A DNA stretch of 21,675 nucleotides, taken from a virus. Its lineage: Duplodnaviria > Heunggongvirae > Uroviricota > Caudoviricetes. The translations under genes and the position numbers were made by a program. The notes beneath the pieces are model-generated. The model saw only the letters and a program-made list of their open reading frames with translations, did no database searches and had not been told where the DNA came from. Within the stretch, counting starts at the first letter, position 1; each line of letters opens with the position of its first letter. Below, piece after piece: positions 10,911-11,237 of this stretch. The stretch is from IMG/VR virus record IMGVR_UViG_2728369593_000011, one strand, 5' to 3'.

Positions 10911-11237
10911 TCAGGGTGCTGAAGGACTAAAGATAAATGTTTTCTTCACGCCTTTACGCGGCTTGTCCTTCTCAAATCGCCATTTTGCCATCGCCTTTAC
11001 AACCTGCTCATCAAACAGATGGTGCGGCTCTGAACGGATAAACTCAATTCGGGTGACAGTACCATCAGCACCAATATCAAACTTCACATCAACCCGTCCC
11101 TTTATATAATTTGCCGCGGCATAGGCCGGATATTGTGGTAATGCCTTAACCAACTGTCGAGGCATATCTGTTTTATGTTGCGTACAGCCCATAACCAAAG
11201 AAGACAACAAAATAATTAACGGAAGATTTCTTTTCAT
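10911..11237 (-). CDS. Small lipoprotein with TonB C-terminal-like domain (cargo gene between the lysis cassette and cos)
   Basis: MKRNLPLIILLSSLVMGC (signal peptide with lipobox-like LVMGC) then ...LPQYPAYAAANYIKGRVDVKFDIGADGTVTRIEFIRSEPHHLFDEQVVKAMAKWRF, which looks like a TonB C-terminal fold. Start taken at ATG 11237; track ORF starts at 11252. Confidence 0.55.
   Translation of the reverse strand: MKRNLPLIILLSSLVMGCTQHKTDMPRQLVKALPQYPAYAAANYIKGRVDVKFDIGADGTVTRIEFIRSEPHHLFDEQVVKAMAKWRFEKDKPRKGVKKTFIFSPSAP

Follow-up and report, generated by a model that had tools for sequence, protein, structure and literature searches.

A lipoprotein with a TonB C-terminal domain encoded between the lysis genes and cos of lambdoid phages, and its possible role as a decoy for TonB boxes

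Introduction

Which function is served by a TonB-like domain that a lambdoid prophage encodes as a small lipoprotein between its lysis genes and cos? This question was raised by a stretch of DNA of 21,675 nucleotides from the IMG/VR virus record IMGVR_UViG_2728369593_000011 (Caudoviricetes), which is called the window here. The window represents a lambdoid prophage of E. coli. Its positions 10400-11700 are 100% identical to strain 2013C-3264 and 99.9% identical to EPEC E2348/69. An earlier sequence-only reading had placed the gene in the slot where lambdoid phages carry genes such as bor, and had proposed that a free periplasmic lipoprotein of this kind could interfere with the TonB-dependent uptake of phages or colicins.

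The gene is already annotated in RefSeq and in the record of phage 21 and is therefore not a discovery as such. The literature search found no functional study of it. If it works as a natural TonB mimic tethered to the outer membrane, it would be a new addition to the transporter-directed lipoproteins of phages. Siderophores, vitamin B12, many phages, group B colicins, microcins and siderophore-antibiotic conjugates all enter the cell by way of the TonB system.

Results and Discussion

The gene product is a predicted outer-membrane lipoprotein

The features at the start of the gene are as follows.

10911..11237, minus strand: coding sequence of the TonB C-terminal-domain lipoprotein, 108 amino acids; RefSeq WP_000828067.1, 'TonB family protein'
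11184..11237, minus strand: lipoprotein signal peptide and lipobox, M1-C18, with LVMG before the Cys and Thr at +2; PROSITE PS51257
11244..11247, minus strand: Shine-Dalgarno-like GGGA, separated from the ATG by 6 nt, as the sequence shows

The open reading frame list and the sequence place the ATG at 11235-11237 and the TGA stop codon at 10911-10913 of the minus strand. An alternative in-frame ATG at 11252 is replaced by GTG or GCG in most alleles, and RefSeq annotates the same start as we do. Consequently, 11237 was taken as the true start. An alignment of alleles revealed that the sequence GGAAT[A/G]AAAATG at the start of the gene is kept in both E. coli subtypes, A and B, which are described below.

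The N-terminus, MKRNLPLIILLSSLVMG followed by C18, satisfies the lipoprotein pattern PS51257. By sequence it reads as a basic n-region (MKRN), a hydrophobic h-region (LPLIILLSS) and a lipobox (LVMG) directly before the Cys. Cys18 is invariant in all 30 members of the family alignment. The residue at +2 is Thr, Ser or Ala in this alignment and Asp in none of the 30 members. Sorting of lipoproteins between the two membranes is governed by the +2 Asp rule, by which proteins without this Asp are directed to the outer membrane. Since the +2 residue of the protein is Thr and not Asp, the mature lipoprotein is predicted to be sorted to the outer membrane. Between Cys18 and the folded domain there are only about 8 residues. 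The earlier notion of a free periplasmic protein thus gives way to a domain predicted to be attached, through this short linker, to the inner face of the outer membrane.

The mature part consists of a TonB C-terminal domain

10926..11162, minus strand: TonB_C domain, residues 26-104, corresponding to residues 153-231 of E. coli TonB; HMMER matches to 1u07, 2gsk and 1xx3

The lipoprotein matched the Pfam family TonB_C (PF03544) with E=2.4e-15 and 57.2 bits against a cut-off of 24.6, and the model TIGR01352 with E=1.7e-15 and 57.1 bits against a cut-off of 27.1. Within Pfam only TonB_C and TonB_2 were matched. A phmmer search of the PDB returned the C-terminal domains of E. coli and Salmonella TonB (1u07, 2gsk, 2grx) at E~1e-16. 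Over residues 153-231 of E. coli TonB, 32 of the 79 positions are identical (41%). The equivalog models of E. coli TonB aligned residues 20-103 of the lipoprotein with approximately residues 152-240 of TonB. The C-terminal part alone aligned, and the whole protein scored 50-74 bits compared to equivalog cut-offs of 265-448 bits. Searches of Rfam and for tRNA genes gave no relevant match.

A first AlphaFold2 model, calculated from 18 near-identical sequences, was weak (pLDDT 63.8). It was superseded by a second model from 30 sequences, after a profile search had contributed 26 diverse relatives. This model reached a pLDDT of 86.4, with values above 96 across residues 30-100. The order of its elements is a short N-terminal strand, helix 1, strands 1 and 2, helix 2 and strand 3. 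This is the alpha/beta arrangement known from the C-terminal domain of TonB, in which two helices pack against a three-stranded sheet. Beyond the predicted strand 3 only the four residues PSAP remain. When the model was compared with the PDB by Foldseek, the best matches were TonB domains and every significant match was a TonB-type domain. The model superimposed on 1u07, 2gsk and 2grx with target-normalised TM-scores of 0.88-0.92 and rmsd values of 1.0-1.4 A. It appeared closest to transporter-bound TonB at 1.0-1.2 A, namely to TonB in the BtuB:TonB complex (2gsk_B; 0.92, 1.0 A) and in the FhuA:TonB complex (2grx_C; 0.92, 1.2 A). In a fold search of the viral structure set BFVD the fold was essentially absent. 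The profile search and the structure prediction that the sequence-only reading had suggested as checks both agree with its description of a small lipoprotein with a TonB C-terminal mature part, as do the lipobox and the TIGR and PDB matches. It is nearly certain that the protein is a lipoprotein built of a lipobox signal, a short linker and a single TonB C-terminal domain.

The C-terminal domain of E. coli TonB (approximately residues 150-239; 1u07, 1xx3, 2gsk, 2grx) and the phage domain have in common, besides the predicted fold, the YP motif, the G-x-V of strand 1 and the W-R-[FY]-E motif. The remaining parts of the two proteins differ. The N-terminal transmembrane anchor of TonB is absent from the phage protein, where residues 1-18 form a cleavable lipoprotein signal. 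The proline-rich spacer that spans the periplasm is also absent, its place being taken by the linker of about 8 residues, and the protein ends 4 residues past strand 3. Without anchor and spacer the lipoprotein cannot couple to ExbB/ExbD or transduce energy. For the same reason, the name 'protein TonB' given to the product in the GenBank record MT225100 overstates what it is.

Differences were also found within the domain. The residues of TonB that contact TonB boxes and transporters are replaced, R158 by Lys, Thr or Ser, Q160 by Leu or Tyr, and R166 by a Tyr that is conserved in the family. As a curiosity only, Q160L is a known tonB allele that suppresses mutations in TonB boxes. Strand 3 is the least conserved strand in the alignment of the 30 family members. 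Residues conserved specifically in the family depart from TonB, for instance YPYYA in place of YPARA.

A further variable residue is position 94, in the loop before strand 3. It is Arg in the window and Cys in many subtype A alleles and in subtype B (RPCKG or RPCQG). This Cys would be a second, unpaired periplasmic Cys which could permit disulfide-linked dimers.

The gene occupies a conserved slot between the spanin genes and cos

The neighbours that define the slot in the window are the following.

12260..12709, minus strand: Rz i-spanin gene, upstream of the TonB_C lipoprotein gene; Pfam Phage_lysis, 1.1e-34
12313-12528: Rz1 o-spanin gene, embedded in Rz; Pfam Rz1, 4.5e-20
10390..10401, read on the minus strand: cosN cohesive-end sequence GGGCGGCGACCT
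9665..10210, minus strand: gene of the terminase small subunit Nu1, downstream; Pfam Phage_Nu1, 3.9e-101
7765-9690: gene of the gpA-type TerL, next after Nu1; RefSeq annotation

On the minus strand the order is the Q antiterminator, a split SASA esterase, holin and lysozyme, Rz/Rz1, a spacer of about 1 kb, the TonB_C lipoprotein gene, cosN, Nu1 and TerL. We take positions 10300-10401, read on the minus strand, to be the left end of lambda with its cosN. From 10402 on the window matches the right end of lambda.

In lambda the same interval between Rz and cos is occupied by bor. The bor-type slot of the earlier reading therefore stands as far as the position between lysis cassette and cos is concerned, but not with regard to orientation, since bor and iss are opposite to the late operon and the TonB_C lipoprotein gene is always co-oriented with it. 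Bor and Iss are likewise small outer-membrane lipoproteins, of unrelated sequence. In phage 21, as in an APEC prophage, a gene of the bor/iss type occurs together with a TonB_C lipoprotein gene.

In each of the 143 viral loci where Rz was recognised, it lay upstream and on the strand of the gene. Nu1/TerL followed downstream on the same strand in 88 of the 88 viral loci where these were recognised. Slot and orientation recurred in phage 21, in the Klebsiella phage ST13-OXA48phi12.4 (41% identity) and in a Rahnella prophage (36%), the last two having different lysis and packaging genes. The phage 21 orthologue, CPT_21_73 (OL657228.1), is a subtype B protein annotated as 'TonB C-terminal domain protein'. 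It is 70% identical and represents a different allele, which lacks the palindrome found in the promoter region of subtype A. In Pantoea the gene adjoins two phage holin genes. Other relatives are located in ordinary chromosomal contexts outside prophages in Raoultella, Klebsiella, Salmonella and Pantoea agglomerans. The TonB_C lipoprotein gene has long belonged to the accessory genes of lambdoid phages. Its place is always between the spanin genes on one side and cos/terminase on the other, and it runs in the direction of the late operon.

Two small open reading frames lie on either side of the gene. Between the gene and cos, and convergent with the former, an open reading frame of 46 amino acids at 10638-10778 on the plus strand belongs to DUF3950 (YlcI/YnfO family). 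Many related prophages have a copy of it. In the spacer towards Rz, the stretch 11913-12187 contains a plus-strand open reading frame of 76 amino acids (hypothetical protein WP_157778920.1, partly hydrophobic) and, after it, a hairpin of a 12-bp stem at 12161-12187. In other phages this position is held by a regulator of the Rha family.

Distribution, subtypes and selection

About 30% of the complete E. coli genomes (1616 of 5426) contain the gene, and all sampled full-length copies carry the annotation 'TonB family protein'. Two E. coli subtypes can be distinguished which share 70% identity at the protein level and 72% at the DNA level. Subtype A, the type of the window (~415 genomes), also comprises Stx1a-converting phages, JLK-2012 and Lys8385Vzw. 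Subtype B (~1200 genomes, among them UPEC and APEC strains) includes the classical phage 21, ev017, Perceval and the PhiR phages. Pathogenic carriers are found in the form of Stx1a phages, EPEC, APEC and UPEC.

Comparison of the two subtypes yielded a dN/dS of 0.12 at 28% nucleotide divergence. Synonymous variant codons outnumbered non-synonymous ones within subtype A (35 versus 19) as well as within subtype B (9 versus 4), and many alleles differ by synonymous changes only. These figures show a genuine gene that is kept by purifying selection. All 155 full-length copies from viral contigs were intact, in a set which had been selected for full-length matches. Frameshift alleles without strand 3 are frequent in subtype B. 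One such cluster has 130 members compared to 368 in the intact subtype B cluster, which suggests that the function has been lost in part of the population. The frameshift lies before strand 3 in the subtype B clusters P0012, P0013, P0015, P0018 and P0021. Many of the carrier prophages are defective.

The family forms a distinct clade of the Enterobacterales with 35-53% identity among its members and approximately 38-41% identity to enterobacterial TonB domains. These two ranges are similar, so the family is old. A recent capture of a host tonB gene was ruled out, the clade being about as far from TonB as its members are from each other.

A coupling of the gene to the TonB-independent Fe/Mn importer sitABCD was also considered and rejected, as it does not generalise beyond phage-21-like isolates. 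Genes sitBCD were located in the b region of phage 21 (OL657228.1, 21967-24502) and of 26 other phage records, and sit was present in all seven cultured-phage records with subtype B. Only one subtype B contig was found among the sit-bearing IMG/VR contigs, compared to 73 close subtype B loci (94-98% identical) among the 80 matches listed. An APEC subtype B prophage was free of sit, and no phage record with subtype A occurred among the sit-positive records. The joint occurrence of subtype B and sit is best explained by the close relatedness of the phage-21-like isolates.

Upstream signals and transcription

11270..11297, minus strand: promoter-like site with -35 ATGACC, 16-nt spacer and extended -10 TGtTAGAAT, found by consensus scan
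11258..11274: perfect 8-1-8 palindrome AGAATAAG-T-CTTATTCT, which overlaps both the -10 and the position where transcription is expected to begin

An extended -10-like element with a weak -35 is located 30-60 nt upstream of the gene. In the consensus scan this site scored 9 of 12 with the TG, the number of such sites in the region being equal to that expected by chance. The block ATTGTYAGAATAAGAC is the only upstream block shared by subtypes A and B, the flanks being otherwise unalignable. Because it alone has been kept, there is moderate support from sequence conservation for a dedicated promoter of the TonB_C lipoprotein gene. Viewed as a moron, the gene combines this extended -10-like block, kept between the subtypes, with a downstream sequence in which no intrinsic terminator was found. 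Transcription antiterminated by Q should consequently also read through the gene late in infection.

The 8-1-8 palindrome, for which 0.03 occurrences are expected by chance, is kept in subtype A, while its second arm is deleted in subtype B. It is possibly an operator. Regulation by Fur through this palindrome was rejected as a conserved trait, because the palindrome agrees with the Fur consensus at only 12-13 of 19 positions and subtype B does not have the second arm.

Another palindrome, AATGATAA-TAA-TTATCATT at 10432-10453, lies ~35-50 bp from cosN on the right-end side and agrees with the Fur-box consensus at 16 of 19 positions. The core, TGATAATAATTATCA, corresponds exactly to the 7-1-7 motif of Fur. 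A link of this Fur-like palindrome to the gene was dismissed, since it is cos-proximal and also occurs in lambda and in all lambda-type-cos loci. Every related locus with a lambda-type cos has an equivalent palindrome (14-16 of 19) no more than 120 bp from cosN, the one of lambda being gatgataatcattatc. The palindrome is a candidate for a packaging element near cosQ, for a Fur site, or for both. Inside the gene, in antisense direction, a sigma-70-like match (TTCACA, 16 nt, TATAAT; 11 of 12) is present at 11083-11110 of the plus strand. It points to the 5' end of the gene and could be due to chance or be an antisense promoter.

A possible decoy for TonB boxes and its alternatives

The most plausible of the mechanisms considered is that the protein mimics TonB without being energised and, tethered to the outer membrane, occupies TonB boxes. 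By analogy with known systems we regard this as possible, though falling short of probable. After sorting by the Lol pathway the domain would hang from the inner leaflet of the outer membrane beside the periplasmic face of the TonB-dependent transporters. Its exposed strand 3 could pair with the TonB-box strands of FhuA, FepA, BtuB and Cir, as the C-terminal domain of TonB itself does. TonB boxes of incoming group B colicins would be possible further partners. As the lipoprotein is not energised, it would compete with TonB for these boxes as a decoy. The outcome would be less TonB-dependent irreversible adsorption of phages of the T1 and phi80 type, and less import of the colicins B, D, Ia, Ib and M and of microcins. 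The effect would be exerted in the lysogen, in cells late in infection, or in both.

Two precedents bear on such a decoy. The periplasmic TonB fragments 33-239, 103-239 and 122-239 inhibit the TonB system and abolish ferrichrome transport (preprint 10.1101/2020.01.05.895219). These engineered fragments likewise place the C-terminal domain in the periplasm uncoupled from the motor of the inner membrane. They are soluble, overexpressed, artificial and longer, whereas the phage protein is natural, lipid-anchored and a minimal domain, and would inhibit by analogy. The second precedent is the phage lipoprotein Llp, which binds to the periplasmic face of FhuA, requires acylation and competes with TonB there (preprint 10.64898/2026.03.26.714494). 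Llp of T5 and Cor of phi80, HK022 and N15 are also small phage outer-membrane lipoproteins at the periplasmic face of a transporter, the place at which the TonB_C lipoprotein would be expected to act. Neither Pfam nor fold comparison relates them to the latter, so that any resemblance is functional only. Moreover, Llp and Cor target FhuA specifically, and their action on its surface loops is allosteric. A TonB mimic would instead have a generic effect, confined to TonB-dependent steps.

The decoy is thus supported by the resemblance of the model to transporter-bound TonB, by the dominant-negative effect of periplasmic TonB fragments and by the strategy of Llp. The invariant lipobox Cys, the purifying selection, the conserved slot and orientation and the conserved -10-like block favour it too. 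Against it stand the loss of R158, Q160 and R166, the variability of strand 3 and the tether of only about 8 residues. The frequent alleles with a strand-3 frameshift and the chromosomal location of some relatives outside prophages argue in the same direction. ExPEC require TonB for virulence. As many of the carriers are ExPEC, a strong constitutive inhibition would be costly, which also counts against a decoy. Furthermore, with no terminator and with the orientation of the late operon, expression may occur mainly late in the lytic cycle, when exclusion brings little benefit. A comparison with PADLOC-DB 2.0 matched no family of defence proteins at E<=1.

The same domain might find its partner in the TonB system itself. 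If it paired with host TonB, at the C-terminal domain of the latter, or with ExbD, at its periplasmic domain, the energy transducer would be retained at the outer membrane. The phenotype would once more be dominant-negative, with a different target. In favour of this are the 41% identity to the domain of TonB and the best Foldseek hit, the dimeric 1u07; TonB fragments form dimers in crystals. The loss of R158, Q160 and R166 would also matter less for a domain that is not directed at TonB boxes. The monomeric model, on the other hand, fits the transporter-bound conformation equally well, and a short tether at the outer membrane would make it unlikely that ExbD, anchored in the inner membrane, is reached. 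Interference between ExbD and TonB has been put forward in a preprint of the Postle laboratory as an alternative explanation for the inhibition by periplasmic TonB fragments (10.1101/2020.01.05.895219), which speaks for such trapping. On this evidence we consider trapping of TonB or ExbD quite unlikely. Slot and transcription direct attention to lysis instead. A late lipoprotein that binds peptidoglycan or another partner in the envelope would tune envelope integrity, the timing of lysis or the action of the spanins, and not transport. The gene always adjoins the holin, endolysin and spanin genes in the same orientation, even where the lysis and packaging modules differ, it stands beside two phage holin genes in Pantoea, and a terminator of its own was not found. 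In addition, PHROG 1267, labelled 'Rz-like spanin', matches the whole protein at 3.4e-42. A spanin was nevertheless rejected, as the protein has no similarity to Rz or Rz1 in Pfam, its gene is 1 kb away from Rz, and the window has a complete, separate Rz/Rz1 pair. For this reason the label was probably assigned by position and is probably a mis-annotation that is spreading to phage genome annotations. We know of no lysis role of the TonB fold. The unrelated bor and iss occupy the same interval, so that the closeness to the lysis genes may reflect no more than a site where insertions are tolerated. We therefore regard a role as a lysis or envelope accessory as unlikely.

The slot shared with bor and iss, together with the frequent occurrence in pathogenic E. 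coli, would equally suit a factor for lysogenic conversion or fitness that works by another route without general TonB antagonism. It could modulate a single transporter (gating, or signalling through a TonB-dependent transducer) or have a role in surface properties or serum resistance like that of Bor and Iss. The promoter-like block kept between the subtypes, the family-specific residues unlike TonB (YPYYA instead of YPARA) and the relatives in ordinary chromosomal contexts, which suggest a cellular role, are in line with this. However, no sequence feature indicates a specific alternative partner, similarity to Bor or Iss is lacking, and the proposal is too broad for computational testing. 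We hold it to be rather improbable. The gene might finally be a decaying passenger without current function, in agreement with the common frameshifted or truncated alleles and the many defective carrier prophages. The dN/dS of 0.12, the invariant lipobox Cys, the slot kept down to 36% identity and the intact state of the 155 viral-contig copies, selected as full-length matches, make decay highly improbable.

In its strongest form, the decoy reading would mean that a dominant-negative TonB occurs naturally in lambdoid phages, as a copy of the docking domain that is anchored by its lipid and sequesters TonB boxes at the outer membrane. We put this forward tentatively and with considerable doubt. 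If it is true, a single module of 90 residues would give lysogens, or cells late in infection, a broad tolerance to all TonB-dependent phages, group B colicins and microcins, by a principle of exclusion distinct from that of the receptor-specific lipoproteins Llp and Cor. If the decoy reading itself holds, a very common prophage gene (present in the 1616 E. coli genomes, in Stx1a phages and in phage 21) would modulate the TonB system, with a bearing on host range in phage therapy, on colicin ecology of the gut and on the susceptibility to Trojan-horse antibiotics, and a minimal natural TonB inhibitor would be at hand. If it is wrong, the gene is still an unusually well-conserved accessory gene of the late operon.

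Further genes in the window

The SASA-family carbohydrate esterase (DUF1737, SASA and DUF6645) is encoded at 13906-15548 on the minus strand by two overlapping open reading frames. In strain 2013C-3264 it is a single coding sequence of 1851 nt; thus, the split in the window is probably a frameshift. On the plus strand, an open reading frame of 320 amino acids at 18185-19147 belongs to the LpxR family of outer-membrane lipid A deacylases (Pfam 1.2e-39). It lies between RusA/antirepressor and the Q antiterminator on the strand opposite to the flanking phage genes, and resembles another envelope-modifying accessory gene.
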